The position numbers and the translations under genes are program-made. From positions 123,719 through 147,718 of the forward strand of contig CALMBF010000155.1 in assembly GCA_937860145.1 (NCBI GenBank): DNA of 24,000 bases, written 5' to 3'. The DNA comes from an uncultured Geobacter sp. (lineage in GTDB: Bacteria > Desulfobacterota > Desulfuromonadia > Geobacterales > DSM-12255). The notes beneath the pieces are model-generated. The model saw nothing but the letters and a program-made list of their open reading frames with translations. It was not told where the DNA came from and did not search any database. The first letter of the stretch is position 1, and the number at the start of each line of letters is the position of its first letter. Positions 918 to 23,213 of the stretch are shown piece by piece.

Positions 918-2459
918 TCAGACCGCCAGTTGTTCGGGATCGGCTGCCGGTCCGCTGTCGTGATAACGATCGTCGGTGATATAGGCGTACGGATCTTTCT
1001 CGTACCACTCGGCCCGGTACGGCAGCGGGGCATTCCCCAAGAGCCGCTGCTGGTAGGAGCGGTTGAGCAGATGCTTGGCAGATCGGCGCGCCACCTCGAA
1101 TGTCCCCTTGTACCCCAGATAGGTCTGCGGTGTCGCATACAGCGGGATGCAGGGCACGCCGAGCTTTGCAACCCAGGAGTTGCTGCCGCCATGGCCGACG
1201 TACAGGTCAGGCTTGGTCCTGTTGATCAGGTTCACCAGTTCGAATACCTGGGCCGTGGCCACGTTTACCTCCAGGTCCGGGTTGTCGCCTGCCGCCCGGA
1301 GATACAGGTCATCACCGAACTGGTCGTAATGGTGGGCCCTGAAGCCGATCACATTGGCGCCGAGCTCGTGGTAGAGCATTGCCATGGTGGCAACCCGCAT
1401 TTCCCCACCGCCGAGATAGACCCGCTTCCCCTTGATTATCTCGCAATAGCGGGCAATCCCCTTTTCCAGGGCGGCCTCTTCTGCGGCGATGAGCCGTTTG
1501 GCCTCTTCTTCCAGGCCGAAGTGGGCGGCGATCTTTTCCAGCCAGAGTGCGGTGTTGCGGATGCCGATGGGCATGGTATCGATGATGTAGGGTATGCCGT
1601 GTTTCTCCTTGAGGAAATCGAGAAAATAGTCATCATGGGTGGCGCAGATACTGACGTTCAGTGCAGCTTTGGTGATGTCGCGGAAGCTCTGTTCGTCGGA
1701 AAAGTGGGGGTAGACCTGCACCTTGAGCCCCAGGGCGCTTAGCAGCCGCTCCAGCTCGATCTCGTCGGGGCGGCCGATGGAGACGGCGTTGAACAGGTTG
1801 ACGGTCCGTTTGGCTTCTTCGTCTCGGATCTTTTGCTCACCTTCGTCCAGGTTCAGCTCCCTGGGGATGAAGTCGAGGAAACGGGCAAGACCGTGGTAGG
1901 CGGCATCGTATCCGGTGGCGGAGATGTGGGTGCGGAAGCCGGCGCAGTGCACCGGGACGACTCGGGCAGCCACCTGGGGCTGGACTTTGGCGGTTACTCC
2001 GTCCACATCGTCGCCAATGATGGCCGGGGTACAGGTGGTGATGATGAAGATGAGCTCCGGGCGATGACGGCGGTCGGCCTGGATGATGGCCGCGGCCAGT
2101 TTCTCCTCGCCGCCGTGGACCACGTCCGATTCGTCCAGGTTGGTGCTCCCCCAGATGATCCGGTCCTGTACCCGACCACGGGCTTTCTGGCCGATGCGGA
2201 ACATGCCGTCGAACTGTTGCAGCGAGCCGCCGCAGCCGGGGGGCGAATGCATCAGGACGTAGGCACCCGGGATGGTGCCGATGATGGTGAGCGCCAAGTT
2301 CATCTGGCAGCCGCCCGCCTGGGAGAAGGAGCGGCCGCTGTTCTGCAGGCAGCCGCCGCGGGAGCTCTTCACGAGCCCGTCGGAACAGCCGCCGTAGGCG
2401 TTACAGGTGCGCAGCCGGTTTTCCCTGACAGGGAGGACTTTCTGATCGGTATAAGCCAT
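918..2459 (-). CDS. Nitrogenase-like component 1 alpha-type subunit (NifD/NifE-like), paralog alpha3, 513 aa
   Basis: Start moved to the ATG at 2459, preceded by AGGAGA; the N-terminus MAYTDQKVLPVRENR aligns with the paralog at 17346. Motifs HSPPGCGG, TTCTPAIIGDD, VHCAGFR and SICATHDDY..KHGIP align to NifD C88, C154, the CEGFR region and C275. Confidence 0.9.
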   Translation of the reverse strand: MAYTDQKVLPVRENRLRTCNAYGGCSDGLVKSSRGGCLQNSGRSFSQAGGCQMNLALTIIGTIPGAYVLMHSPPGCGGSLQQFDGMFRIGQKARGRVQDRIIWGSTNLDESDVVHGGEEKLAAAIIQADRRHRPELIFIITTCTPAIIGDDVDGVTAKVQPQVAARVVPVHCAGFRTHISATGYDAAYHGLARFLDFIPRELNLDEGEQKIRDEEAKRTVNLFNAVSIGRPDEIELERLLSALGLKVQVYPHFSDEQSFRDITKAALNVSICATHDDYFLDFLKEKHGIPYIIDTMPIGIRNTALWLEKIAAHFGLEEEAKRLIAAEEAALEKGIARYCEIIKGKRVYLGGGEMRVATMAMLYHELGANVIGFRAHHYDQFGDDLYLRAAGDNPDLEVNVATAQVFELVNLINRTKPDLYVGHGGSNSWVAKLGVPCIPLYATPQTYLGYKGTFEVARRSAKHLLNRSYQQRLLGNAPLPYRAEWYEKDPYAYITDDRYHDSGPAADPEQLAV

Positions 2460-2683: not shown

Positions 2684-4024
2684 TTATCGGCCCGGGATCG
2701 CGAACGACATCAGATCTTCCGCCAGGCTGAGGCCCCCACGATAACCGGCATACCCTTTGTTCATCACCACGCGGTTGTTGAGCGGAAAGCTGATCCCCAG
2801 GTGGCGGGCGCCGATGTTGGCGGCCAGTTCCCCTTCGATGGTGCTTCCCAGGATATAGGCCGGGCTAAAGATAGGCGCGTAGCGGTTGCCATCGGTAGCC
2901 GGCCAAAGTCTGGCCAGGTGGGCCGGGATCTGCCCCGCATCGGTTTCGAAGATGATCGTCGGCTGATAGCCGGACTCCAGGCGGTCGTAGCCGTCTATAA
3001 CCGCTGCGTGAAACTGTTCGTCCAGTCCGTCGCTCACCACCGCCAGATCGGTCAGCCAGCCCAGCTCTTCATTGAGAAAGCGGGTTATGGGGAGGGTTGT
3101 GGTGGCATTCCCCACCACCGCGGCATAGAACTGCATGTCTACATCGGTGAACAGGTCGCTCGAGCGTTCGAAGATGCGGTAGTAGAGATCATTTTCCCTG
3201 GCGATGACTGCTTCGGTGGCTTGCGGGTCAAGCCCAAGGGCGGCAGTCACCTCCCGCAGGAAACGGGCGGTGGCCACTGCCCCCACCGGCAGATCCACGA
3301 CTTTGAACGGGGTGGCGAAGCGTTCCTCGAACGTTCTGGCCGGGTCCACGCCATAAGCACGGGATACGACCAGATTGGCCGCTGCCGCCGGTGCACTCCG
3401 CAGGTTGTCCAAGGTTTCGTCCGGGGCGAATAAGGTGTTGACCTCCAGCCCCAGAAGCCCCAGCAGGCGCTTCAGCTCAAGCAGATCACCACGGAAAAAC
3501 GGGTCCTGACCCGGTACCAGTCCCCAGAGGTTGACGAGGCGGGTGTTTATCTCCGCTGCTGGCTTGAGGTAGTGGCGGAAGAGCCCGTCCAGCAGGAGAT
3601 CATACCCCTTGTAGGAGTTCCCCTTGAAACCGCCGGTCTCGATGCCGATCACCGGTATGCCGTTGTCCCGGTGCTCCTGGACCACCGACTGAATGTCATC
3701 GCCGATGATGTCGGTCATGCAGGCCGACACCACCACGTAGAGCTCGCCGTCCATCAGCTCATGGGTGGTGCGGATCTGCTCGCTCAAGCGGTCGCTGCCA
3801 CCGAACACCACCTCATTCTCGACGATGTTGGAGCCGGGGAGCGACGTGCCGCCGCAGTAGCCGGCCCCGTAAAAGCCGCTGCCGGCATAATGGGCCATGT
3901 GCAGGTTGCCGCCGCAGCCGCCGGAGCCATGAATGATCGGGATGGCTTTCGGCAGTGAGGTGATGGCGCTGAGCGCCCCTCCCAGGGCGCAGGTGAAGCG
4001 GGGGTGATCGATAGGGGTACTCAT
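2684..4024 (-). CDS. Nitrogenase-like component 1 beta-type subunit (NifK/NifN-like), paralog beta3, 446 aa
   Basis: Motifs FTCALGGAL, IIHGSGGCGG and SACMTDIIGDD match the three NifK P-cluster cysteine contexts. GGAGGA RBS before the ATG at 4024. Close paralog of 19075..20412. Confidence 0.9.
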   Translation of the reverse strand: MSTPIDHPRFTCALGGALSAITSLPKAIPIIHGSGGCGGNLHMAHYAGSGFYGAGYCGGTSLPGSNIVENEVVFGGSDRLSEQIRTTHELMDGELYVVVSACMTDIIGDDIQSVVQEHRDNGIPVIGIETGGFKGNSYKGYDLLLDGLFRHYLKPAAEINTRLVNLWGLVPGQDPFFRGDLLELKRLLGLLGLEVNTLFAPDETLDNLRSAPAAAANLVVSRAYGVDPARTFEERFATPFKVVDLPVGAVATARFLREVTAALGLDPQATEAVIARENDLYYRIFERSSDLFTDVDMQFYAAVVGNATTTLPITRFLNEELGWLTDLAVVSDGLDEQFHAAVIDGYDRLESGYQPTIIFETDAGQIPAHLARLWPATDGNRYAPIFSPAYILGSTIEGELAANIGARHLGISFPLNNRVVMNKGYAGYRGGLSLAEDLMSFAIPGR

Positions 4025-4051: not shown

Positions 4052-4723
4052 TTAGTGAATTGCGCCAAAATCTGTTTCCAGTAGCACCATTCCCGGTGCA
4101 ATCTCGATAAACGAATCGCCGTCCCACGGGCCGTTGACGACCCGCCGCAACCATGCGTCGCGGCCGCCTATGGTCAGGAATTCCAGCCCCAGCAGCCCAG
4201 CCAGTTCGCGGCCGGTTGCCAGGTGCGCTGTTTCCCTGGGATGGCCGGTATGAACGAAAACAATGCGCCGGTAGGCATCGAACATGGTGGCCATCACCCG
4301 TTTTGCCTTCTGCTCGCCATATTTTTCCCGTACGCGCCGGTATTCGGAAAATACGGTCCGCTCCCCCTCCAGCCAGCCGCCGGAGAGGAAATAAGTCCCC
4401 TTTTCCTCACGGAGGAGTTCTTCATGGGTGTACCGGGACCCAAGGAGGAGCGGGATGCAGTCGTGGGCTCTCGGAATGAACAGCGGTATCCCTGGCGCAG
4501 TCAGTCCTGCCACCGCCCCGCCGCAGAGGCCGAAAGCCAGCACCACCCGGTCTCTACCAGTGGCGCTGGCAAGAACCGCGCGTAACTCCTCCCGCAGTTT
4601 GTCCGGCCAGCGGTGCAGCCCCATGGAGACAAAGTGGAAGATGACCGGGTGTGTCGGCGTTATTGCCAGAAGTTCTTCCTTCATGACGTCGCAGGCAATG
4701 ATGTGGGTAGGTGCGTCAGGCAT
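4052..4723 (-). CDS. DUF1638 domain protein, 223 aa
   Basis: The pattern IIACDVMKEEL...GLH..P..L...FGLCGG...AHDC...LGS...FLSGGW is typical of DUF1638. It lies 27 nt upstream of beta3 on the same strand. Confidence 0.7.
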   Translation of the reverse strand: MPDAPTHIIACDVMKEELLAITPTHPVIFHFVSMGLHRWPDKLREELRAVLASATGRDRVVLAFGLCGGAVAGLTAPGIPLFIPRAHDCIPLLLGSRYTHEELLREEKGTYFLSGGWLEGERTVFSEYRRVREKYGEQKAKRVMATMFDAYRRIVFVHTGHPRETAHLATGRELAGLLGLEFLTIGGRDAWLRRVVNGPWDGDSFIEIAPGMVLLETDFGAIH

Positions 4724-8082: not shown

Positions 8083-8194
8083 CGGGAGCTGGTACGATGA
8101 TCGTTCATCGTTAATCCGGTGGTTGAGCGGTGGCGGAGGAGGCACGTCATGCGAACGGAGTCACCGCTCAACTACCGACTGTGGAGAATCGTTC

Positions 8195-9016
8195 GTGATA
8201 CAACTTGATCTGGACACCCGGCTCCTGGCCGAAAATTATGACGAGCTGAGCGACTACCAGTTCGACAATGGTCGACGTCTACTGGAACTGCTCGATATCC
8301 GGCCCAACTCACGGGTCCTCGACATCGGCTGCGGTACGGGCCGTCTCGGGCTCCTGGTCGCGGAGTCCCTTGGTGACGACGGAAGGCTCATCGGCATTGA
8401 CCCTCTGCCCGAGCGGATCAGGATCGCCTGCAGCAAGAAGGCCCCGGCCAATGCGCGCTTTCAGGTCGGGGTGGGTGAGGACCTCGGTTTTCTCGACTGC
8501 GAGAGCATTGATGTCGTCTTTCTGAGTGCGGTATTCCACTGGATTGCCAACAAGGAGAAAGCGCTGCGGGAAATAGCCCGGGTGCTCAAGCCGGGGGGAC
8601 GGATCGGCCTTACCACGGGAGCCAGGGAGTTGGCCCGGGAAGCAACGTACCGCAAGATTACGGATCGGGTTCTGCTTCGCCTACCGTACAACAAGGTAGT
8701 CAATATCGAGGATTATGTCTTTACCCGGCACGGCGTTACCGCAACCCAGCTGGTACAGCACTTCCTCGGCGCCAAGCTGGCCGTGCAGAGCGTCGACATC
8801 CGCAAGCGATGCAAGTATTTCCGCAGCGGGATGGAGATTGTCGATTTTCTTGAATCGAGCACCTTCGGCAACTATCTGCAGCATGTGCCCGGCAACTTGC
8901 GGGAGGATGCCCGACGTGAGATCATTCTCGAGTTCGATAGCCTGAAGGCCGGTGGCCAGGTCGAGTTTACCGGGTTCACCATCTTTGCCGTGGCGGAGAA
9001 GCCGCTGGTGGATTGA
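8195..9016 (+). CDS. Class I SAM-dependent methyltransferase, paralog 1, 273 aa
   Basis: GTG at 8195 after GGAGAA. Motif I is VLDIGCGTGRLG. It aligns end to end (roughly half the residues identical by eye) with 16353..17171. The upstream part of the track ORF (from 8123) is unsupported. Confidence 0.8.
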   Translation: MIQLDLDTRLLAENYDELSDYQFDNGRRLLELLDIRPNSRVLDIGCGTGRLGLLVAESLGDDGRLIGIDPLPERIRIACSKKAPANARFQVGVGEDLGFLDCESIDVVFLSAVFHWIANKEKALREIARVLKPGGRIGLTTGARELAREATYRKITDRVLLRLPYNKVVNIEDYVFTRHGVTATQLVQHFLGAKLAVQSVDIRKRCKYFRSGMEIVDFLESSTFGNYLQHVPGNLREDARREIILEFDSLKAGGQVEFTGFTIFAVAEKPLVD

Positions 9017-10658: not shown

Positions 10659-12857
10659 GTGCATCCAGTGTATCTTGACTACAATGCAACTACTCCGGTT
10701 GACCCCCTGGTGGTTGATGAGCTGCTCCCCTGGTTGCAGGAAGGGTTCGGCAATCCATCCAGTAATCACCCGTACGGCCAGCGTGCCAAACATGCAGTGG
10801 AGCAGGCTCGTTCGCGGGTGGCGTCACTGCTTGGCGCGCATCCGGCGGAGATTATATTTACCAGCGGTGGTACCGAGGCAAACAATCAGGCGCTGATCGG
10901 GGTTGCCCTGGCCAACTGCGAGCGGGGTCGGCATATCATCACGTCGTCCATTGAACACCCGGCAGTCCTGAATCCGCTCCACTGGCTGGAGGGGCAGGGG
11001 TTCAACATCACCTATCTCCCCGTGGACAGCTCCGGACGGGTAGATCCGGAGACGTTGCGCCAGGCCATCACCTGCGAGACAATTCTCGTCAGCGTGATGC
11101 ATGCCAACAACGAGGTGGGGACTATCCAGCCGCTGGCCGAGATCGGCGCCATCGCCCGGGAACACGGCATTCTGCTGCACACCGATGCCGCCCAGTCGGT
11201 GGGGAAGATCCCGACGAGGGTGGATGAACTGGGGGTGGACCTGCTGACCATTGCCGGCCACAAGTTTTATGCCCCCAAGGGGATCGGCGCCCTCTATGTG
11301 CGCACGGGGGTGAAGATTGATCCCTACCTGCATGGCGCCGGACACGAAGGGGGCCGTCGGGCGGGGACCGAAAACGTCCCCTATATCGCCGCACTGGGTA
11401 AGGCGGCAGAACTGGCGGGCCAGCGGTTGGCCAGCGAAGGGGAGCGCATTCGTGAGCTGCGGGACCGCTTCCATGCCCGGCTGAACGAACTGGTTGACGG
11501 GGTCCTGCTGAATGGCCACCCCACCGAGCGCCTCCCCAACACTCTCAACATCAGCTTCAGCGACGTGGTCGGGGCTGATCTGCTGTCCCGTATTCCGGAG
11601 ATGGCCGCTTCCACCGGTTCGGCCTGTCATGACGGCAGCGGCGAGCTGTCCGGCGTGCTCAAGGCCATGGGGGTGCCACGGGAGCAGGGTTTCGGCGCCA
11701 TCCGCTTCAGCCTCGGCCGGCTTACCACCGCCGAGGAGCTGGAACGGGCAGCAGAGCTTGTTGCGACCAGGGTCAGGGAAATTCGCGCCATCCGGGGTGG
11801 TGTTTCCCATAATCACGTTCAGACCGGGCTCTCCGCCCTGGCTTCCTGCGCCGGTTGAGCGGCCAAGATAAGTCCTCAGGACCTGGCTCAAGTTTTGAGT
11901 CAGCTACCAAGCATTACCGACCCGAATGTACTCATCGGCACCAAAACCGCCGATGATGCCGCCGTTTACCGTGTGAACGATGATCTGGCCATCGTGCAGA
12001 CGGTGGACTACTTTACTCCGGTGGTGGACGACCCCTATCTGTTCGGCCAGATTACCGCTGCCAACTCCCTGTCCGATATCTATGCCATGGGGGCTACGCC
12101 TCTCTTTGCTCTGAACATAGCCGGGTTTCCATCCGATACGCTTCCCTTGGATGTTCTGGCCAGGATTCTCCAGGGGGGTGCTGACAAGGCGGCGGAAGCA
12201 GGCATCAGCATCATCGGCGGCCATACCATCAAGGATGCGGAGCCGAAATACGGCATGGCGGTCACCGCGGTGATCCATCCCGACCAGGTGATCAGTAACG
12301 CCGGGGCCAAACCGGGTGACCGGCTGATCCTCACCAAGCCGCTGGGAATCGGGATTATTACGACTGCCATGAAAAGCGGCAAGGTTACAGAAAAGACCGT
12401 TGCCGAAGTTGTCGCTGTCATGGCGAGTCTGAACAGGAGTGCCGCAGAGGCGATGGTTGTGGTCGGAGCCCATGCCTGCACCGACGTGACCGGTTTCGGA
12501 TTCCTCGGCCATCTTTCCGAAATGGTCCGTGGAAGCGGCGTCGGCGCGGTGATCAGCGTGTCGAGGGTGCCGGTGCTGGAAGAGGCCTGGAGTCTGGTGC
12601 GTGAGGGGATTGCTCCGGGCGGCAGCCGACGCAACCTGGAATTTTTGCGCGACCGGCTCACGGTAGAAACGGGTGTCAGCGAAGAGGAGCTGCTTGTCCT
12701 GGCCGATGCCCAGACCTCTGGCGGGTTGCTGATAGCATTGCCGGCAGACGACGTTGACCGGTTAGAGACGGAACTTGCCGGACGGGGTGTGACAGATGTT
12801 GCCGAAATCGGCGAGATTGTGGCCGATCCCGACAGCCGGATCACCCTGAGACCCTAG
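10659..12857 (+). CDS. selD: NifS-like cysteine desulfurase/selenocysteine lyase fused to selenophosphate synthetase; in-frame UGA (Sec) at 11856-11858; 732 aa
   Basis: GTG after AAGGAGG. The N-terminal domain has the PLP Lys context GHKFYAPKG and the active-site motif GSAC. Reading through the TGA gives ...SCAG-U-AAKISPQDLAQVL..., matching the SelD G-x-G-C/U-x-x-K-I-S-P active site. The rest is SelD-like (DDAAVY, VDYFTP, TDVTGFG). Confidence 0.8.
11859..11899 (+). other. Candidate SECIS-like stem-loop immediately 3' of the UGA
   Basis: GCCAagataaGTCCtcaGGACcTGGC at 11862-11887, followed by CTCAAgttTTGAG at 11887-11899. Confidence 0.4.
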
Positions 12858-15955: not shown

Positions 15956-16000
15956 GCTGACCAGATAACTGGAGGCCAGGATTTTTCCTGGCCTTTTTTT
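15956..16000 (+). promoter_or_regulatory. Leader motif copy C (GCTGA-CCAGataaCTGG-A-GGCCAGG...CCTGGCC-T7)
   Basis: It lies about 45 nt downstream of the predicted transcription start and about 115 nt upstream of the Nfu start, in a leader-terminator arrangement. Confidence 0.65.
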
Positions 16001-16352: not shown

Positions 16353-17171
16353 ATGATATCCCTTGCGCTTGATAACAGTAAACTCGCCAAAACCTACGAC
16401 GAAATCAGCGATTCCCAGTACGAGTCCGGCAAGAAGCTGCTTGCCGAACTCAAAGTCAAACCGGGTGAGACCGTGCTCGACATCGGCTGCGGCACCGGTC
16501 GGCTCGGACTCTACCTGCTCGATATTATCGGTCCGACCGGCCGTTTCATCGGCATCGATCCGCTGCCGGAGCGTATCAGTATTGCCAATGACAATAATGT
16601 TCACCCTAACGCCGAATTCCGTACCGGTGTGGCTGAAGACCTCTCGTTTCTGGGGAACAACAGCGTCGACCTGGTCTACCTGAGCGCCGTGTTCCACTGG
16701 GTACCCGATAAGCAGAAGGCATTGCAGGAGATCAGCCGGGTGTTGAAGCCGGGTGGCAGGATCGGTTTGACCACCAACGCCAAGGAGTTGGTTAAGGCGA
16801 CCACCCTCCGTTCCGTGACCACGGAGGTGTTATCTCGGGTTCCCTATCGCGGCCAAGTGGATGCCGAGGCTTTTGCCCCGACCCGCCACGGGGTGACAGC
16901 CACCCAGCTGGTTGAGCTCTTTCTCGATGCGGGATTCAGGGTTGCGGACGTCCGTGTCCTGGCCATCGAGCGTTTGTACCATACCGGACGTGATATCGTC
17001 GACTTTGCCGAAGCAAGTACCTTTGGCAATTACCTGAACCACGTGCCGGCAGATTTGCGGGATAAAGCCCGTTTTGACCTGGAGAGCGCCTTTGAGATAC
17101 TGCGTGGTGACGAGGGGATTCCGTTTCAGCTATATACACTTTTTGCCATTGCCGAAAAGATCGGCGCCTGA
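16353..17171 (+). CDS. Class I SAM-dependent methyltransferase, paralog 2, 272 aa
   Basis: Motif I is VLDIGCGTGRLG. Collinear with 8195..9016 (shared blocks LSAVFHW, VLKPGGRIGLTT, RHGVTATQLV, STFGNYL.HVP). Confidence 0.85.
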   Translation: MISLALDNSKLAKTYDEISDSQYESGKKLLAELKVKPGETVLDIGCGTGRLGLYLLDIIGPTGRFIGIDPLPERISIANDNNVHPNAEFRTGVAEDLSFLGNNSVDLVYLSAVFHWVPDKQKALQEISRVLKPGGRIGLTTNAKELVKATTLRSVTTEVLSRVPYRGQVDAEAFAPTRHGVTATQLVELFLDAGFRVADVRVLAIERLYHTGRDIVDFAEASTFGNYLNHVPADLRDKARFDLESAFEILRGDEGIPFQLYTLFAIAEKIGA

Positions 17172-17345: not shown

Positions 17346-18875
17346 ATGGGATTGAAAGAAGACCGGGTTGTCCCCGGCAGGGAAGACCGGGTAGCGGCCT
17401 GCATGGCCTATGGCGGCAGCGCCTGCAGTATCGGCGGCGAAAGCAAGGCATGTCTGAAGAACAGCGAGCGGGGTTTTTCCCAGGCCGGCATCTGCCAGCT
17501 ACTGCCGACCTTGGGGATGCTCCTGACCCTGCCGGATATTGCCGTGATCATCCATGGCGCCATCGGCTGCGGTTCTGCCGGGTTCGGTATGAATGTCAGT
17601 ATTCGCCTGCATCATCTGCTCCGCGGCAATCCCAATGCCAAGGACAGCCTATGGTTCAGTACCAACCTGGATGAGGCGGATGTGGTGCATGGCGGCGAAC
17701 AGCGGCTGGAGGAGACTATCCTCACTGTAAACGAACGCTACAAACCGAAATCCATCGTCGTGGTGCAGACCTGCACCCCGTCCATCATCGGCGATGATCT
17801 CGTGGGGGTGGTGGAAAAAGTCCGGCCGCTGGTGGAGGCCAACATACTCTATGCCCACTGCGAAGGGTTCAAGACCAAGGTCTGGGCCACCGGCTATGAC
17901 GTGGCTTTTCATGCCATGATTCACGGTTACATAGAAAAGGACAAGGAGGGGCCGCCGCCACGAAAAGCCCCCTGGCAACCGGGACAGCGGCCGACGGTCA
18001 ATGTCATCAACCTGGCCTCCGTCGGCAAGCCGGACGAGGAGGAGATCGAACGGCTCCTCAATGCCATCGGCATCGATGTGACCATCGGCCCCAACTTCGC
18101 CGACCGGGAAAAGGTGCGGCAGCTGACTCAGGCCGACCTGACGGTCAGCATCTGCCCGACCCATGACGACTACCTGGTCGATTACCTGCACACCGAGTAC
18201 GGCATCCCCTTCGTCCTGAAGGACATGCCGATCGGCCTGGAGAATACCCGCAACTGGTTGCTGGATATTGCGGGCAAATTCGGTCTGGAAAAGGAGGCGC
18301 TGGCCCTGATAGAGGCCGAGGAGGCCAGGGCGCGCACAGCGGTGGAGCGCTTCCTTCCCGTGCTGAAGGGGATCCGGGTATTTCTCTCCGCCGGTGAGTT
18401 CCGGGCGCTGGTTACCGGCGGGCTGTTCCAGGAGCTGGGGATGGAGATCGTCGGGGTACGCTCCTACCACCATGACGAGTTCGGCACCGATTTCTACGGC
18501 CGGCTGGTAAACGGTCAGCAGGGGAAGGACTTCCCGGTGGATATCGCCAATTTCCAGCCCTTCGAACTGGTCAATCTGTTGCAGCAGGTCAAGCCGGACC
18601 TCTTTGCCGGCCATATCTGGGACAACGCCTGGGCCGCCCGCCTCGGCTATCCCACCATCACCATCTTCCGCATCTTCGACTACTACGTCGGCTACCGCGG
18701 TTTCTATGAAGTGGCAAAAAAGGCGGCCCGCATCCTGCGCAACCATTCGTTCAATGCCAATCTGAGCAGAAACGTTACCGATGCCTACCGCCCGGAGTGG
18801 TATGAGCAGAACGCTTTCAAATACATCAAGTCAGGGCTGCCTGAGGGTCTGCAATCGGATACAGCTGCAGTGTAA
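17346..18875 (+). CDS. Nitrogenase-like alpha-type subunit (NifD/NifE-like), paralog alpha1, 509 aa
   Basis: ATG at 17346 after GGAGAGAGG. Motifs IHGAIGCGS, QTCTPSIIGDD, AHCEGFK and SICPTHDDY..EYGIP. Collinear with alpha3. Confidence 0.9.
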   Translation: MGLKEDRVVPGREDRVAACMAYGGSACSIGGESKACLKNSERGFSQAGICQLLPTLGMLLTLPDIAVIIHGAIGCGSAGFGMNVSIRLHHLLRGNPNAKDSLWFSTNLDEADVVHGGEQRLEETILTVNERYKPKSIVVVQTCTPSIIGDDLVGVVEKVRPLVEANILYAHCEGFKTKVWATGYDVAFHAMIHGYIEKDKEGPPPRKAPWQPGQRPTVNVINLASVGKPDEEEIERLLNAIGIDVTIGPNFADREKVRQLTQADLTVSICPTHDDYLVDYLHTEYGIPFVLKDMPIGLENTRNWLLDIAGKFGLEKEALALIEAEEARARTAVERFLPVLKGIRVFLSAGEFRALVTGGLFQELGMEIVGVRSYHHDEFGTDFYGRLVNGQQGKDFPVDIANFQPFELVNLLQQVKPDLFAGHIWDNAWAARLGYPTITIFRIFDYYVGYRGFYEVAKKAARILRNHSFNANLSRNVTDAYRPEWYEQNAFKYIKSGLPEGLQSDTAAV

Positions 18876-18909
18876 ATATACCTGATGACTATCAATTCTT
18901 CCGTAAATT

Positions 18910-19013
18910 CCTTCTCCCTCAGGGAGAAGGTGGCCTCAGGCCGGATGAGGGTGGTAACAGTGCCATTATGCACCATTTCCCCCTCACCCTAGCCCTCTCC
19001 CTCAGGGAGAGGG
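18910..19013. repeat. REP-like element: inverted pair of CCYTCTCCC-tca-GGGAGARGG hairpins in the alpha1-beta1 gap
   Basis: Hairpins at 18910-18930 and 18993-19013, plus GGCCtcaGGCC at 18932-18942. The two halves are approximately reverse-complementary. Confidence 0.65.
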
Positions 19014-19074
19014 GACTCTGTATAAGCTGTAGTGGCAGGTACGATTAAATTAATTACCAAGGAGTAACATCCAT

Positions 19075-20412
19075 ATGAGCACATTTATTGAACGCCCCCG
19101 CTACCAGTGCGCCCTCGGCGGCGCGCTGGTTACCATCAATGCCATTGAACGGGCAGTGGCAATTGTCCACGCTTCACCCGGGTGCGCTGCGGCTGCCGAT
19201 GGCGCCGCTGCCTTTGGCGGCGGCTACTGGGGGTCCACCGTCCACGACGGCCGGGCCACCCCGAGCAGTAACATCGTCGAGCGTGAAGTCATCTTCGGCG
19301 GTGAGGAGCGGCTTGCCGAGCAGATCAGCGCCACCCTCGATGTGGTCGACGCCGATCTCTACGCGGTCATCACCGGCTGCATGACCGACATCATCGGCGA
19401 CGATGTCCGCTCGGTGGTGAACGAGTTCCGCAGACAGGGGAAACCGGTCATAGTAGCCGAAACCGGCGGCTTCAAGGGAAACTCCACCGTCGGCTACGAA
19501 TTTCTCTGGGATGCACTGATCAACCAGTTCGTCTCAAAGGGGCTGCCGAAAAAAGACCGGCTGGTCAACATTTTCGGTGTGCTGCCGGTACAGGATGTTT
19601 TCTGGCGCGGCAACCTGCTCGAACTGAAAAGGCTGCTGTCAGCCATCGGCATCGAGGCCAACACCTTTGTTACCCCGTTCGATGACACCGCGTCGCTGAA
19701 AAACGCCTCCCAGGCGGCTCTTTCGATCGTCCTTTCCGATGTCCACGGTCAAAAGGCCGCCGCTCTTTTCGAGGAGGTACACGGGGTGCCGTATATCACC
19801 GAGTCCCTCCCGTTCGGCCCGACGGCGACGGAACGGTTCCTGCGCCGGATCGCAGAACTCTTCAACATCTCCTCGGCAAAGCTGAACCGGGTACTGAAGG
19901 AAGAGCGCCGGCACTATTACCAGTTCATCAATCCGCTGACCGATCTCTTTACCGACCAGGATTTCCAGCGTTTCGGCGTGGTCATCGGCAATGCCAATTA
20001 CGCTTACGCGGTGAGTCGCTTCATCGCCGACGATCTCGGCTGGATTCCCTATTTTGCGGCCATCACCGATATTCTGGATGAACAGCAGCAGGCAGCGGTA
20101 CTGGCGCGTTTTGCCACGATTCCCGAACAGGCGCGCCCCAAGGTCATTTTCGAGACCGACACCAGCCGGATCAGGGAGCGGCTGTTTGCCGAACTGGAAA
20201 AGGAGAATGATCCTTACGGGACCCCGATCAGTCCGGCATTCGTTATCGGCAGTAACCTCGACCGTCCTCTGGCTGCGGATCTGAAGGCCGGCTTCTGGGG
20301 CGTATCCTATCCGATTACCAACCGGGTTGTGACCGACCAGGGTTATCTCGGCTATCGTGGCGGCCTGCGCTTGGCGACCGAGGTTGTCAGCGCACTTGTT
20401 AGCAACCGATAA
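19075..20412 (+). CDS. Nitrogenase-like beta-type subunit (NifK/NifN-like), paralog beta1, 445 aa
   Basis: Motifs YQCALGGAL, IVHASPGCAA and TGCMTDIIGDD. AAGGAG RBS. Close paralog of beta3. Confidence 0.9.
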   Translation: MSTFIERPRYQCALGGALVTINAIERAVAIVHASPGCAAAADGAAAFGGGYWGSTVHDGRATPSSNIVEREVIFGGEERLAEQISATLDVVDADLYAVITGCMTDIIGDDVRSVVNEFRRQGKPVIVAETGGFKGNSTVGYEFLWDALINQFVSKGLPKKDRLVNIFGVLPVQDVFWRGNLLELKRLLSAIGIEANTFVTPFDDTASLKNASQAALSIVLSDVHGQKAAALFEEVHGVPYITESLPFGPTATERFLRRIAELFNISSAKLNRVLKEERRHYYQFINPLTDLFTDQDFQRFGVVIGNANYAYAVSRFIADDLGWIPYFAAITDILDEQQQAAVLARFATIPEQARPKVIFETDTSRIRERLFAELEKENDPYGTPISPAFVIGSNLDRPLAADLKAGFWGVSYPITNRVVTDQGYLGYRGGLRLATEVVSALVSNR

Positions 20413-20424
20413 AGGAGAGCATGT

Positions 20425-21897
20425 ATGGCAATCAATCTAAATCTTTCCGAAGCACCGATCCGCGAGGCTCGTCTCGGGGCCATCACCGGCTATAACGGTA
20501 CCCTCAAGGATCTGGTCAGCCGTAGCGGTTGCGGTGCAACGATCAATAACTGCGAGCGGAGTTTCAGCCAGACCAGTTCCTGCAGCTCCGGCTGTGCCCA
20601 GACCCTTCTGGCAAACATTGTCGATGCGGCAATTGTCAATCACGCTCCCATCGGCTGTGCCGGCGACACCATTTATCACAACATCGCCAACCATTACGGC
20701 CGCTTCTACCGTGGGCAGGATAACCGCAACATCCAGTTGATCAACACCAATATCGAAGAGTCGGACACGGTGTTCGGCGGTGCTGAAAAGCTGCGGGCCG
20801 GGATTCTGGAGGCATGGCGACGTTTCAAGCCGAAGGCGATTTTCGTCAGCACCTCCTGTGCCTCGGGGATTATCGGGGACGATATCAAGGGGGTTATCAG
20901 CGACCTGGGGGAAGAGGTCCCGATTCCGGTCATTCCGGTCTCCTGTGAAGGGTTTCGCAGCAAGGTCTGGGCCTCCGGATTCGATGCCGCCTTTCATGCG
21001 GTTCTGACCGGTATCGTCAAGCCTCCCCGGCGGTCACAGCCGAACCTGGTGAACATGGTCAACTTCCGTGGCAGTGCCCGGGAGTATATCACCCGACTGT
21101 TCGGCAGACTCGGCCTTGAGCCGCGCTTTATTCTCCCCTTTGCCTCGGTGGAGGAGCTGGAAACCATCTCCGAGGCGGCGGTGACCGCCACGGTCTGCAC
21201 CACCCTTGGCAGTTATATCGGCACGGCTCTGGAAGAGCAGTACGGCGTTCCCTATGTGAAAACCATTCCGCCCCACGGTGTTGCCGGTATCGAGGCCTGG
21301 CTGCGCGGCATCGCAGCTGCTGTCGGCAAGCAGGGTGAGGTGGAGGAGCTGATCGCCGAAGAGCGTGCCGCCACTGTCGACGATCTTGCCGAGATCCGTC
21401 GCCGCCTGGACGGAAAGACTGCCGTATTGGGGATGGGGCCCAGTTATGCCCAGTCTTACCTCGGGGTGCTGGAAGAGCTGGGGATAACGGTTCTGCACGC
21501 TGCCAGCTGGCACTATGACCAGCGTTATGACTATGGCGAGCAGCCGCCGGCCATTTTGCGCGCTGCCGGCCGGGAAGAGGACGTCACCTTCAGCGTCGGT
21601 GACCAGCAGCTGTTCGAGATCGGCAACAAGCTCTCCAGGGTCAAGCCCGATCTCTATTTCTCCCGTCACCCCGGCAGTTCGGTCTGGGGCGCCAAGCTGG
21701 GGATAACCGCTGTCCCGGTTATCGATGAGTACACCGCTTTCGGTCATCGTGGCCTTGTGAACTTCGGCTATCGGATCATCGATGCCCTGACCAACCGGCA
21801 CTTTGTCACCAAACTGGCGGAGCGGGTAACACTCCCCTACACGACCTGGTGGTTCGAACAGGACCCCTATTCATTTCTTGAGCAGGAGGTAATCTGA
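20425..21897 (+). CDS. Nitrogenase-like alpha-type subunit, divergent paralog alpha2, 490 aa
   Basis: Motifs NHAPIGCAGD, STSCASGIIGDD, VSCEGFRSKVWASGFDAAFHA and TVCTTLGSY..QYGVP. AAGGAGAG RBS 12 nt after the beta1 stop. Confidence 0.9.
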   Translation: MAINLNLSEAPIREARLGAITGYNGTLKDLVSRSGCGATINNCERSFSQTSSCSSGCAQTLLANIVDAAIVNHAPIGCAGDTIYHNIANHYGRFYRGQDNRNIQLINTNIEESDTVFGGAEKLRAGILEAWRRFKPKAIFVSTSCASGIIGDDIKGVISDLGEEVPIPVIPVSCEGFRSKVWASGFDAAFHAVLTGIVKPPRRSQPNLVNMVNFRGSAREYITRLFGRLGLEPRFILPFASVEELETISEAAVTATVCTTLGSYIGTALEEQYGVPYVKTIPPHGVAGIEAWLRGIAAAVGKQGEVEELIAEERAATVDDLAEIRRRLDGKTAVLGMGPSYAQSYLGVLEELGITVLHAASWHYDQRYDYGEQPPAILRAAGREEDVTFSVGDQQLFEIGNKLSRVKPDLYFSRHPGSSVWGAKLGITAVPVIDEYTAFGHRGLVNFGYRIIDALTNRHFVTKLAERVTLPYTTWWFEQDPYSFLEQEVI

Positions 21898-23213
21898 TGG
21901 CAGGACCGATAGAACAGATACGAAACGTCTGCGCCCTGGGCGCACTGCAGTCGGTGGTGGCGATTCAGCGGGCAATCCCCATAATCCATGCCGGCCCGGG
22001 GTGCGGACAGAAACTATGGAGCGGACTCTCCAACGGCAACGGTTTCCAGGGGGCGAGTTATGTCGGGGGTCATGCGGTTCCCTGCAGCAATGCTACGGAA
22101 AAGGAGGTGGTTTTCGGCGGCGAGGACAAGCTTCGGGAAACGGTGGAAAACACTCTCAAGGTCATGGATGGCGACCTCTTTGTGGTGTTGACCGGCTGCA
22201 CCTCCGACATCGTCGGCGATGATGTGGGGGAGGTGGTGCGCAGCTTCAAAAACAAAGGGACGCCAATCGTCTACGTGGAAACCGGTGGCTTCAAGGGTGA
22301 CAACTACTTTGGCCATGAACTGCTCTGGGAGGCGATTATCGAGCAGTTTCTGGAAAAATCAGACAGGATGGAGCAGGGGCTGGTGAATGTCTGGAGTGTC
22401 ATCCCCTATCAGGACCCCTACTGGACCGGTACCTTGCATGCCATTGCCGACCTGCTCCGCTCCATCGGGCTCAAGCCGAACATCATCTATGGACCGGGGG
22501 AAGGGGTCGCTTCGGTGCGCAAGATCCCGTCAGCCCAGTTTAACCTGCTCATCTCTCCTTGGGCCGGCCTGAAAACGGTCAAGCGACTGGAAGAGAAGTT
22601 CGGTACACCCTTTTTCCATTACCCGGCGCTCCCCATTGGTGCCACCGAGAGCGGCTCCTTCCTGCGGTCAGTCGGCAGCTTTGCCGGCATCCCGGTATCA
22701 CGGGTGGAGGAGACCATCAAACGGGAGGAGGAGCGTTACTATTATTACGTGGAGCGGTCAGCCGATCTGCTCTTCGAGACCCGCTTCCTCCCCGGCCATT
22801 TCGTTACCATTGCCGACAGCTTCTATTCCCTGGGCCTGACACGCTTCCTGATCAATGATCTGGGGCTGATTCCCGAAGTGCAGTTCGTTACCGAAGCCGT
22901 GCCTGAAGAGTTCCGGCCGCTGGTGGAGACGGAGTTCGCCAGGTTCGATGAAGGCCTGGTGTCGCCGGTGCACTACGGCGCCGATGGAGCAACGGTGCGT
23001 GACGAACTGGCGAAACACAAATTCCGCGAACGGCCACTCATTCTCGGCAGCAGCTGGGACCGGGTAATAGCCCGGGAACTGAAAGGGTATCCGTTGTCGG
23101 TCGCCATGCCGGTCAGCGACCGGCTGGTGCTGAGCCGCACCTATGCTGGCTATGACGGGGCGCTTCGGTTGACGGAGGATATCTACTCCGTGATCCTGGG
23201 CAGCTTCCAGTAG
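21897..23213 (+). CDS. Nitrogenase-like beta-type subunit, divergent paralog beta2, 438 aa
   Basis: Motifs NVCALGAL, IIHAGPGCGQ and TGCTSDIVGDD. The start overlaps the alpha2 stop (cTGATGg). Confidence 0.9.
   Translation: MAGPIEQIRNVCALGALQSVVAIQRAIPIIHAGPGCGQKLWSGLSNGNGFQGASYVGGHAVPCSNATEKEVVFGGEDKLRETVENTLKVMDGDLFVVLTGCTSDIVGDDVGEVVRSFKNKGTPIVYVETGGFKGDNYFGHELLWEAIIEQFLEKSDRMEQGLVNVWSVIPYQDPYWTGTLHAIADLLRSIGLKPNIIYGPGEGVASVRKIPSAQFNLLISPWAGLKTVKRLEEKFGTPFFHYPALPIGATESGSFLRSVGSFAGIPVSRVEETIKREEERYYYYVERSADLLFETRFLPGHFVTIADSFYSLGLTRFLINDLGLIPEVQFVTEAVPEEFRPLVETEFARFDEGLVSPVHYGADGATVRDELAKHKFRERPLILGSSWDRVIARELKGYPLSVAMPVSDRLVLSRTYAGYDGALRLTEDIYSVILGSFQ

Follow-up and report, generated by a model that had tools for sequence, protein, structure and literature searches.

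Most clades of Group IV nitrogenase-like (NFL) proteins have no assigned function, and a 2026 review counts finding those functions among the field's greatest challenges. Methylthio-alkane reductase (Mar) is a sulfur-scavenging enzyme of this group that cleaves methylthio-ethanol, DMS, or EMS into methanethiol and a hydrocarbon. The [Fe8S9C] cluster of MarDK from R. rubrum (PDB 9FMG) has as its second ligand MarD His429, which binds Fe8 (PMC12552129). This residue lies on a Mar-specific loop, adjacent to the NifD Gly424 position and apart from the H442 loop, and it was for this reason overlooked in earlier sequence analyses (PMC12552129). MarD His375 is close to the belt sulfide S2B (PMC12552129). 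The Mar variants C270A, H429L/F, and W195A are inactive, while mutation of H450, within the H442 loop, has no effect (PMC13474568).

In NifEN, a weak second ligand, Gln419, stands beside NifE Cys250, and the complex has a 4Fe O-cluster because NifN gives one Cys only (PMC13031127). In heliobacteria, few or even single H and B genes serve the NflDK1-5 pairs, of which NflDK2-4 are themselves uncharacterised (PMC9147875). MarHDK-like genes are also found in or near Type I mlp clusters, which concern corrinoid S/Se-methyltransferases, and these mlp-associated genes were called 'IV-A' by Kountz & Balskus (PMC10418091). The Cys-plus-His ligand pattern of Group IV has already been published, and the retention of Cys ligands together with the loss of His442 is likewise explained in the literature and is not a discovery of the present work.

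Three nitrogenase-like pairs at one locus

The window, which denotes here the whole stretch of 24,000 nucleotides that was analysed, carries three alpha/beta gene pairs. Positions 17346 to 18875 of the plus strand are exactly one gene, a1, which encodes an NFL alpha protein (NifD/MarD-like) of 509 aa, and the NFL beta gene b1 lies at 19075..20412 (+). The second pair consists of a2 (20425..21897, +), the NFL alpha closest to MarD, and the NFL beta b2 (21897..23213, +). The third pair is on the minus strand, where a3 (918..2459), an NFL alpha of 513 aa, has its true start at 2459 rather than 2522, and the NFL beta b3 occupies 2684..4024. The host is Geobacter-like, and the nearest relatives are Geotalea, Geomonas, and Geomesophilobacter.

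All six proteins match PF00148 (Oxidored_nitro) with 208-263 bits, far above the Pfam gathering cut-off of 28.6 (for a1, E = 9e-76). Using HMMER, the best PDB match of every alpha is MarD, chain 9fmg_A (a1, E = 8e-56; a2, E = 1e-109 over the full length; a3, E = 3e-62), and b2 matches 9d9u_C with E = 7e-129 and is 48% identical to MarK. Identity to MarD is 30-31% for a1 and a3 and 39% for a2, and a1 and a3 are 30-34% identical to a2. The AF2 models of a1 (pLDDT 88.8) and a3 (pLDDT 86.9) both have 9fmg_A as their top Foldseek match (TMt 0.91 and rmsd 2.5-2.6 A), compared with a target-normalised TM of about 0.75 to NifD and up to 0.81 to NifE. An earlier note on this DNA had predicted cluster sites more NifE-like or Mar-like than Mo-nitrogenase-like, and both the sequence matches and the models agree with the Mar-like description.

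A neighbor-joining tree pairs the a2 family with RrMarD as sister lineages and puts a1 and a3 into a separate clade; the named anchors of this tree are only RrMarD and Hmi. gestii NflD3, and none is labelled IV-A, IV-C, IV-D, or IV-E. Subclades of a1, a2, and a3 are each kept across many genomes. Because the alphas match MarD best and carry a His at the position of MarD His429, a1/b1, a2/b2, and a3/b3 are probably catalytic components of NFL reductases that belong to Group IV and are of the Mar type, with a P-cluster and an L-type cluster held by Cys and His.

Cysteines at the ligand positions of the P-cluster and the cofactor

The reference A. vinelandii NifD and NifK sequences were 100% identical to PDB chains. 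For MarD and MarK of R. rubrum, the sequences were reconstructed using the HMMER alignments to chains 9fmg_A and 9d9u_C, and the resulting numbering fits all residues given in the structure paper. In a MAFFT alignment, the P-cluster ligands NifD C62, C88, and C154 (MarD C66, C91, and C158) correspond to Cys50 (17493..17495), Cys75 (17568..17570), and Cys143 (17772..17774) of a1, all plus strand. The same positions are occupied in a2 by Cys53, Cys78, and Cys145 (codons 20581-83, 20656-58, and 20857-59) and in a3, in the 513-aa numbering, by Cys51, Cys76, and Cys143 (codons 2307-09, 2232-34, and 2031-33). On the beta side, NifK C70, C95, and C153 align with Cys12, Cys37, and Cys102 of b1 (codons 19108-10, 19183-85, and 19378-80), Cys12, Cys36, and Cys101 of b2 (codons 21930-32, 22002-04, and 22197-99), and Cys12, Cys37, and Cys102 of b3 (codons 3989-91, 3914-16, and 3719-21). 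Every alpha/beta pair has all six P-cluster Cys residues, with MarK C32, C56, and C121 as the beta-side equivalents in Mar, in line with the earlier prediction of an 8Fe P-cluster-type site at the interface.

The position of NifD C275 and MarD C270, where the cofactor is bound through its terminal Fe1, is taken by Cys270 in a1 (18153..18155, +; HMMER and MAFFT), Cys258 in a2 (codon 21196-98), and Cys272 in a3 (codon 1644-46). The hand alignment behind the first reading had placed Cys residues at these alpha and beta sites, and re-alignment leaves them there. A Sec-containing alpha, as known for some Group III NifD proteins, was ruled out, because all ligand codons are TGC or TGT for Cys in intact reading frames. 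The motif contexts 'GxCQ' and 'THDDY', which had been given for all three alphas, hold for a1 and a3, but a2 has SSCS and CTTLGSY instead.

Conservation was evaluated in a 76-sequence alignment, in which 43 of the 509 columns are invariant and the mean column identity is 56%. The invariant set includes C50 (76/76), C75, C143, and C270, as well as H375 (18468..18470, +; the MAFFT counterpart of MarD His375) and H423, a coincidence with a chance p of 2.6e-7. For the four Cys residues and the Mar-type His all to lie in this set, chance p is approximately 3e-6. In the a2 family, C53, C78, C145, C258, W182, F186, H363, R414, and H415 are each found in 120 of 120 sequences.

A predicted second cofactor ligand on the Mar loop

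MarD His429, of Loop I, corresponds to His423 in a1 (18612..18614, +), His415 in a2, and His423 in a3 (1191..1193, -), and the MAFFT alignment and independent pairwise HMMER alignments to 9fmg_A agree on this placement. The residue is invariant in the 76 aligned sequences, in all 113 homologues from the a1 search, and in all 120 a2 relatives. At the NifD H442 position, the residue depends on the alignment: it is Phe, Ile, or Tyr (a1/a2/a3) in two alignments and a gap in another, and the H442 loop was therefore judged not reliably alignable. His is found there in none of them. The loop is entirely free of His in a1 and a3, and H441 of a2 is not conserved, being present in only 12 of 120 relatives. 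The Ala, Arg, or Ile that the earlier note had read at this position belongs to these alignment-dependent readings; its point that His442 is not kept stands.

The conclusion drawn at the time, that the second cluster site is held by Cys only and is NifE-like, did not survive. A NifE-like scaffold with a loosely bound or transient cluster would fit the absence of a conserved His at NifD H442 or in its loop, NifE itself has only Cys250 and the weak Gln419 (PMC13031127), and N-terminal Cys residues resemble the entry ligands Cys15 and Cys25 of NifE. However, the His at the MarD His429 position is an essential ligand in Mar and is invariant in all alphas and their families, all betas have three Cys residues, unlike NifN, and the models fit MarD better than NifE. 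A site of Cys alone is therefore scarcely credible.

Other residues of the nitrogenase active site are replaced. NifD Q191 and H195, whose loss had been noted before, are W/W/S and Y/F/Y in a1/a2/a3, Val70 is M/L/I, Arg96 is not conserved in the alphas, and NifK Ser188 is Gly in the betas. These substitutions bear on the idea that at least one pair does not reduce sulfur compounds but is an alternative N2-fixing enzyme similar to Nfa (Group IV-A). Heliobacteria and Paenibacillus, for which N2 fixation by Group IV enzymes has been proposed (PMC13474568), contain relatives of a2, and NfaD reportedly has the same Cys/His pattern. Yet N2 reduction needs Val70, Gln191, and His195 (PMC12552129), among named relatives a2 is closest to Hmi. 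gestii NflD3 (WP_161260450, 60% identity) and not to NflD1 of the Nfa clade, and the genes around the pairs serve the metabolism of sulfur, selenium, and methionine and include none for nitrogen regulation. N2 fixation by Nfa is itself unproven, and we regard an Nfa-type function as very improbable.

Variation in the predicted cofactor pocket

With Mar-type reductases as the preferred reading, the three alphas differ in the residues that would surround the cluster. Arg414-His415 of a2 (21664..21669, +) corresponds to the 'RH' hallmark Arg428-His429 of MarD in both HMMER and MAFFT alignments, and both residues are present in 120/120 relatives. In a1 and a3, the Arg428 position is Gly and the loop is shorter by one residue. 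The MarD Trp195 position is Trp in a1 (W180) and a2 (W182) and Ser in a3 (Ser180). MarD His194 is replaced by Val/Val/Ile and Phe374 by Tyr/Trp/His (a1/a2/a3), while all three retain His375; each alpha has other residues in place of Cys73 and Gln74, and MarK Cys52 is absent from the betas. Moreover, three Cys residues at the N-terminus and a C-x-T-H-D-D-Y motif distinguish a1 and a3 from MarD and a2, which have neither. The C-x-T-H-D-D-Y motif adds a His/Asp element near Fe1, one helical turn past the Cys ligand.

Loop motifs were also compared among four-Cys alphas in a superfamily-wide alignment of 50%-identity representatives, which mixes alpha-like and beta-like sequences, is noisy, and was used for this purpose only. 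Mar-like and a2-like alphas have 'RH', a1/a3-like alphas have '(G/A/S)H', and remoter four-Cys alphas mostly lack the His.

Because a1 and a3 lack Arg428 and have the shorter loop, and a3 has Ser at the Trp195 position, the surroundings of their cofactor could differ from those in Mar, and possibly so could the cofactor itself. We tentatively suggest, as a possibility that is open to considerable doubt, that alphas of the a1/a3 type are L-cluster reductases of a class with its own function, with a differently tuned pocket and substrates beyond the known Mar thioethers. Judged from the residues, 'GH' in place of 'RH', the C-x-T-H-D-D-Y motif, the three N-terminal Cys residues, and, in a3, the missing Trp195 would mark such a class. 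Its substrates would be, for example, organoselenium or other methylated chalcogen compounds, which would be passed on to methyltransferases of the corrinoid/MtaA-like kind and the adjacent NifS-SelD selenoprotein.

The same departures could be read in another way, namely that not all pairs are catalysts and that one of them, such as a3/b3, works for the others as a scaffold on which the L-type cluster is matured or stored, or else carries a modified cofactor. Three DK pairs share one locus, apparently without H or B genes of their own; a1 and a3 have low identity to a2; a3 is without Trp195 and Arg428; a1 and a3 have the Cys triad and C-x-T-H-D-D-Y motif that MarD and a2 lack; and R. palustris NflDK3 was inactive on the substrates tested. 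Against a scaffold, all six P-cluster Cys residues and the strong His ligand are kept, both of which were lost in the known scaffold NifEN. The conservation of the subclades in many genomes is as expected of enzymes with their own substrates, and R. palustris Mar1 and Mar2 differ by substrate and not by role. This alternative reading is unlikely.

Gene context and cofactor supply

Other genes of the window encode MetK, a BesB-like Cys/Met PLP enzyme, TauE, NifS-SelD, Nfu, and ArsM-like methyltransferases. The neighbours in relatives include NMT1-type ABC transporters, cysteine synthase, and MtaA-like or corrinoid genes. No NifH-like gene was found in the window (all frames of its ends; tblastn with verified NifH) or in seven related loci, and the window and its flanks on the source contig (approximately 10 kb on either side) contain neither a NifH-like nor a NifB-like gene; these flanks also contain no radical-SAM gene. 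Neither riboswitches nor other RNAs were detected in an Rfam scan of the window. On the source contig, a NifX-like gene (PF02579) precedes a3 at approximately 3.4 kb upstream, and the a2 orthologue of Geomonas subterranea has a NifB-core gene (TIGR01290, E = 1.6e-92) directly upstream.

Proposed mechanism

The presence and invariance of the ligand residues, and MarD as the closest match in sequence and fold, are direct observations; from them and from Mar we infer the actual cluster content, reductase partner, and substrates of the three pairs. Each pair would hold an [8Fe-7S] P-cluster at its subunit interface, with three Cys residues from the alpha and three from the beta, and a homocitrate-free [Fe8S9C] L-type cluster inside the alpha. 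The ends of the latter would be bound by the NifD C275-equivalent Cys and by the His on the loop after the 'KPD' strand, comparable to MarD Cys270 and His429, and the NifD His442 ligand would be missing because the His of this lineage comes from another loop. If the pairs work as Mar does, electrons would pass from a NifH-like ATPase, with its gene elsewhere, via the P-cluster to the L-type cluster, and an organosulfur, possibly an organoselenium, compound would serve as the substrate, with its carbon-chalcogen bond cleaved for the assimilation of S or Se.

The locus combines one pair with the full Mar signature (a2b2) and two with defined departures from it, amid methionine, SAM, sulfur, and selenium genes. 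Three divergent pairs with defined pocket differences and S/Se neighbours therefore represent a reasonable comparative system for relating pocket residues to substrate range on [Fe8S9C].

Comparison with known systems

The three pairs share with the Mo-nitrogenase NifDK of A. vinelandii the PF00148 fold, six P-cluster Cys residues, and the Cys275 ligand, but identity is only 24-25%, the TM is approximately 0.75, and His442, Gln191, His195, Val70, and Arg96 are not kept. Like NifEN, they have the NifD C275-equivalent Cys, which binds the L-cluster in NifEN, N-terminal Cys residues, and no His at 442; in contrast to the single Cys of NifN and to Gln419, the betas have three Cys residues and the alphas an invariant His. 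The heliobacterial NflDK1-5 of Heliophilum fasciatum and Heliomicrobium gestii (PMC9147875) are also several divergent Group IV DK pairs clustered per genome, although the host here is Geobacter-like and the gene neighbours are different.

Type I mlp clusters resemble the locus in that an MtaA-like URO-D gene and DUF1638 flank a3b3 on the source contig, and in that a sister DK pair in Geotalea abuts a corrinoid protein, two URO-D, and RACo genes. No corrinoid protein or RACo gene is present in the window itself. The functional link to mlp-type clusters is a proposal.

R. rubrum MarDK (Group IV-C; 9FMG and 9D9U) differs in its marBHDK operon, where marB and marH are adjacent, as they are not beside the a1-a3 genes, and in the residues replaced by Gly at Arg428 in a1 and a3 and by Ser at Trp195 in a3. 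All three pairs share with it the six P-cluster Cys residues, the Cys270-type and His429-type ligands, His375, the lack of His442, Gln191, and His195, and a sulfur-metabolism gene context, and a2b2 also keeps Arg428, Trp195, and Phe199.

Gene pairs and family assignment

The window lies on a 106.7-kb metagenome contig (JGI 3300025144 Ga0209725_1000015). Six of its proteins score 208-263 bits against PF00148 and form three nitrogenase component-1 alpha/beta pairs. The nitrogenase-like (NFL) alpha subunits are a1 (17346-18875, +), a2 (20425-21897, +) and a3 (918-2459, -), and their respective beta partners are b1 (19075-20412, +), b2 (21897-23213, +) and b3 (2684-4024, -). The region described in the earlier note coincides exactly with the a1 gene. 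Since all six proteins score far under the cut-offs of the NCBIfam NifD, NifE, NifK, VnfD and AnfD models, none of them is orthologous to a named nitrogenase protein.

The alpha subunits are old paralogues of one another, with pairwise identities of 30% (a1/a2), 41% (a1/a3) and 34% (a2/a3). Identity to MarD, the alpha subunit of methylthio-alkane reductase (Mar), is 39% for a2 and 30-31% for a1 and a3. A neighbour-joining tree rooted on NifD has two clades, one uniting the a2 family with MarD and the other comprising a1 and a3 together with a third group, likewise found in Geotalea and Geobacter. The a2 protein is 60% identical to WP_161260450, listed in the Heliophilum genome paper as Hmi. 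gestii NflD3, a paralogue separate from the Nfa-like NflD1 and the Mar-like NflD5 (PMC9147875). Its partner b2 shares 48% identity with MarK (E=7e-129). The a3 lineage is sparsely sampled, as its nearest 50%-cluster representative is only 51% identical. Geotalea, Geomesophilobacter and Geomonas are the nearest named relatives, and Sporomusa, Pelotomaculum, heliobacteria, Clostridium and Paenibacillus are farther ones. The presence of several Group IV alpha/beta (DK) pairs per genome has already been described for heliobacteria (PMC9147875), and likewise for Rhodopseudomonas.

Cysteine ligands and the His442 loop

Reference sequences were secured before the alignment in the earlier note was checked. 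The A. vinelandii NifD, NifK and NifH sequences used match the PDB chains from end to end without a difference. Those of R. rubrum MarD and MarK were reconstructed from HMMER alignments to 9fmg_A and 9d9u_C; the rebuilt numbering reproduces the published C66, C73, Q74, C91, C158, H194, W195, F199, C270, H375, R428 and H429 of MarD, and the C32, C56 and C121 given for MarK in the structure paper.

With these references, MAFFT placed cysteines opposite NifD C62 (a1 C50, a2 C53, a3 C51), C88 (C75, C78, C76), C154 (C143, C145, C143) and C275 (C270, C258, C272), and the beta alignment did so for NifK C70/C95/C153 (b1 C12/37/102, b2 C12/36/101, b3 C12/37/102). The retention of these residues, as proposed in the earlier note, thus holds for all six proteins. 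The reported loss of Gln191, His195 and His442 is also borne out: in a1, a2 and a3, MAFFT gives W, W and S at 191 and Y, F and Y at 195 (and M, L and I at NifD V70), and none of the alignments made of these proteins places a His at 442. The residue opposite His442 changes with the alignment (F/I/Y, a gap, or the A/R/I reported earlier), so this loop is not reliably alignable. In a1 and a3 the whole loop is free of His. In a2 it contains a single His (H441), which only 12 of 120 relatives share; the loop has no conserved His. All four alpha cysteines fall among the 43 invariant columns out of 509 in an alignment of 76 sequences (mean column identity 56%), a pattern of conservation far from chance.

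A predicted, relocated histidine ligand

The second cluster had been predicted to be held by Cys only. In MarD, cryo-EM identified Cys270 and His429 as ligands of the [Fe8S9C] cluster (PMC12552129). His429 sits on the Mar-specific Loop I, beside the site where nitrogenases have an invariant Gly424, and off the loop of NifD His442; the authors give this location as the reason why earlier sequence analyses overlooked it (PMC12552129). The Mar variants C270A and H429L/F are inactive, and Mar tolerates mutation of H450, a residue of the His442 loop, without effect (PMC13474568).

MAFFT and three independent HMMER pairwise alignments identify the counterparts of His429 as a1 H423, a2 H415 and a3 H423, which argues against the Cys-only prediction for all three alphas. 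In a2, Arg414 precedes H415 and reproduces the 'RH' hallmark of Mar. Conservation of this His is complete: it occurs in 113/113 homologues of the a1 search, in 120/120 relatives of a2 and throughout the mixed alignment of 76 sequences. The position of MarD His375 is likewise invariant. The probability that chance would put all six pre-named positions among the 43 invariant columns is p = 2.6e-7. Among 50%-identity superfamily representatives, alphas nearest Mar and a2 carry 'RH', those nearest a1 and a3 carry '(G/A/S)H', and remoter four-Cys alphas mostly have no such His. The Loop I His is therefore a clade signature and not a generic residue of the superfamily.

AlphaFold2 models of a1 (pLDDT 88.8, pTM 0.89) and a3 (pLDDT 86.9, pTM 0.88) place the His between strand 419-422 and helix 424-432, a region modelled with confidence (pLDDT block means of 89-96 over residues 411-430). 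MarD (9fmg_A) was the top Foldseek match in the PDB for both (TMq 0.83-0.84, TMt 0.91, rmsd 2.5-2.6 A); NifD chains gave TM scores of ~0.70 (query-normalised) and ~0.75 (target-normalised) at an rmsd of ~4 A, and NifE gave 0.68 and up to 0.81. We infer the Cys-to-His geometry in a1 and a3 from homology.

The cluster-binding architecture is well supported. According to the 2025 structure paper (PMC12552129) and a 2026 review, most Group IV NFL sequences retain both the P-cluster Cys and the Cys of the C275 type, have no His442, and possess a His of the MarD His429 type. The earlier note rediscovered this published hallmark from sequence and missed the relocated His.

Gene neighbourhood and proposed function

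The window also encodes MetK, DUF1638, two ArsM/UbiE-like methyltransferases, a BesB-like Cys/Met PLP enzyme, Nfu, a NifS-like/SelD pair and TauE, EamA, ChrA-like and MFS transporters. Loci of relatives contain NMT1-type (sulfonate-type) ABC transporters, cysteine synthase, glutaredoxin and corrinoid/MtaA/RACo genes. Group IV NFL genes are reported to be associated with sulfur metabolism and also with type I mlp corrinoid S/Se-methyltransferase clusters (PMC10418091), and the neighbourhood is consistent with both. On one side of a3b3, upstream of window position 1 (L004 11637-14321), are a homologue of MtaA/CmuA-family methylcobalamin methyltransferases, a NifX-like protein and a ThiI/MnmA-like PP-loop protein; the other side, which includes window 4052-4723 (-), has DUF1638 and MetK. 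In Geotalea, a sister DK pair adjoins genes for a corrinoid protein, two URO-D proteins and RACo. Both surroundings resemble the type I mlp clusters of Kountz & Balskus (PMC10418091).

Synteny of the a1-b1-a2-b2 module extends to Geotalea and Geomesophilobacter. At 15971-15996 (+), 3' of the BesB-like PLP gene, lies a strong terminator-like hairpin (11-bp stem, T-run), and its position suggests a putative transcription unit Nfu - methyltransferase - a1 - b1 - a2 - b2. The a1-b1 gap is unusually long, at 200 nt (18876-19074) compared to 63 nt in Geotalea. The two methyltransferases (8123-9016 and 16353-17171, +) are paralogous and SAM-dependent in type; their best NCBIfam similarity is to arsenite-methyltransferase-type models, under cut-off, and they possibly act in chalcogen or metalloid methylation. 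A trio encoding a glutaredoxin-like protein (YruB family) and proteins of ~311-323 and ~460-472 aa is kept 3' of the DK genes in three genomes (L003 17430-20276, just past the window 3' end; L001 15737-18599; L006 from 19970 to its end). The two larger proteins have no Pfam match on record, and their source-contig copies no NCBIfam match.

No NifH-like gene was found in the window, in the ~10 kb of source contig that flank it on each side, or in the seven related loci searched. The source contig has a NifX-like gene (PF02579) ~3.4 kb upstream of a3. The a2 orthologue of Geomonas subterranea directly follows a gene for a 279-aa NifB radical-SAM core (TIGR01290, E=1.6e-92), which, like MarB, has no NifX domain; the cluster there also includes three DK pairs, DUF1638, a NifX-like gene and two MtaA-like URO-D genes. 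The three pairs are best read as putative ATP-dependent reductases that split carbon-sulfur, or possibly carbon-selenium, bonds; we infer that they would cleave different organo-chalcogen compounds for assimilation. The reductase partner, and probably a NifB-type maturase, would be encoded elsewhere.

A candidate selenoprotein

The ORFs for the NifS-like cysteine desulfurase (TIGR03402, E=2e-145) and SelD (TIGR00476, E=1e-115) share one frame (10659-12857, +) and are divided solely by a single TGA (11856-11858). Read-through yields '...SCAG-U-AAKISPQDL...', which matches the E. coli SelD active-site motif, GAGCGCKISP. The product is probably a NifS-SelD fusion selenoprotein whose catalytic position is occupied by Sec.

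Comparison with NifEN and Mar

A resemblance to NifE had also been suggested. NifEN carries a [4Fe-4S] O-cluster at its subunit interface, with three Cys ligands from NifE and one from NifN, and its inward-bound L-cluster is held by Cys250 and only a weak Gln419 ligand (PMC13031127). In contrast, b1, b2 and b3 each retain three Cys and, by alignment to MarD, each alpha has a strong His ligand, which argues against a NifE-like assignment.

Compared to Mar, a1 and a3 show several departures. Gly422 replaces MarD Arg428 in both, and the loop is one residue shorter. From the cofactor Cys, they read C-(P/A)-T-H-D-D-Y (a1 residues 270-276, window 18153-18173; a3 residues 272-278), whereas the corresponding segment is C-x-T-L-x-x-Y in MarD and a2 and C-Y-R-S-M-N-Y in NifD. 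The motif His occurs in 64 of the 76 aligned sequences. The motif adds a His and two Asp at a distance of one helical turn from the ligand of Fe1. Ser180 of a3 (window 1920-1922, -) occupies the position of MarD Trp195, and the W195A variant of Mar is inactive (PMC13474568). Three extra N-terminal Cys (a1 codons 19, 27 and 36, window 17400-17453; a3 residues 19, 25 and 37) are matched in 51-56 of the 76 sequences. The flexible N-terminus of MarD carries C42/C46/C54, and N-terminal Cys15/Cys25 are the L-cluster entry ligands of NifE (PMC13031127); those of a1 and a3 may be transient ligands for cofactor insertion. The uncharacterised a1/a3 clade is the modest upside of this locus: its departures from Mar are real and family-conserved, may reflect different substrates or cofactor tuning, and are the sole part of the locus that exceeds published knowledge.
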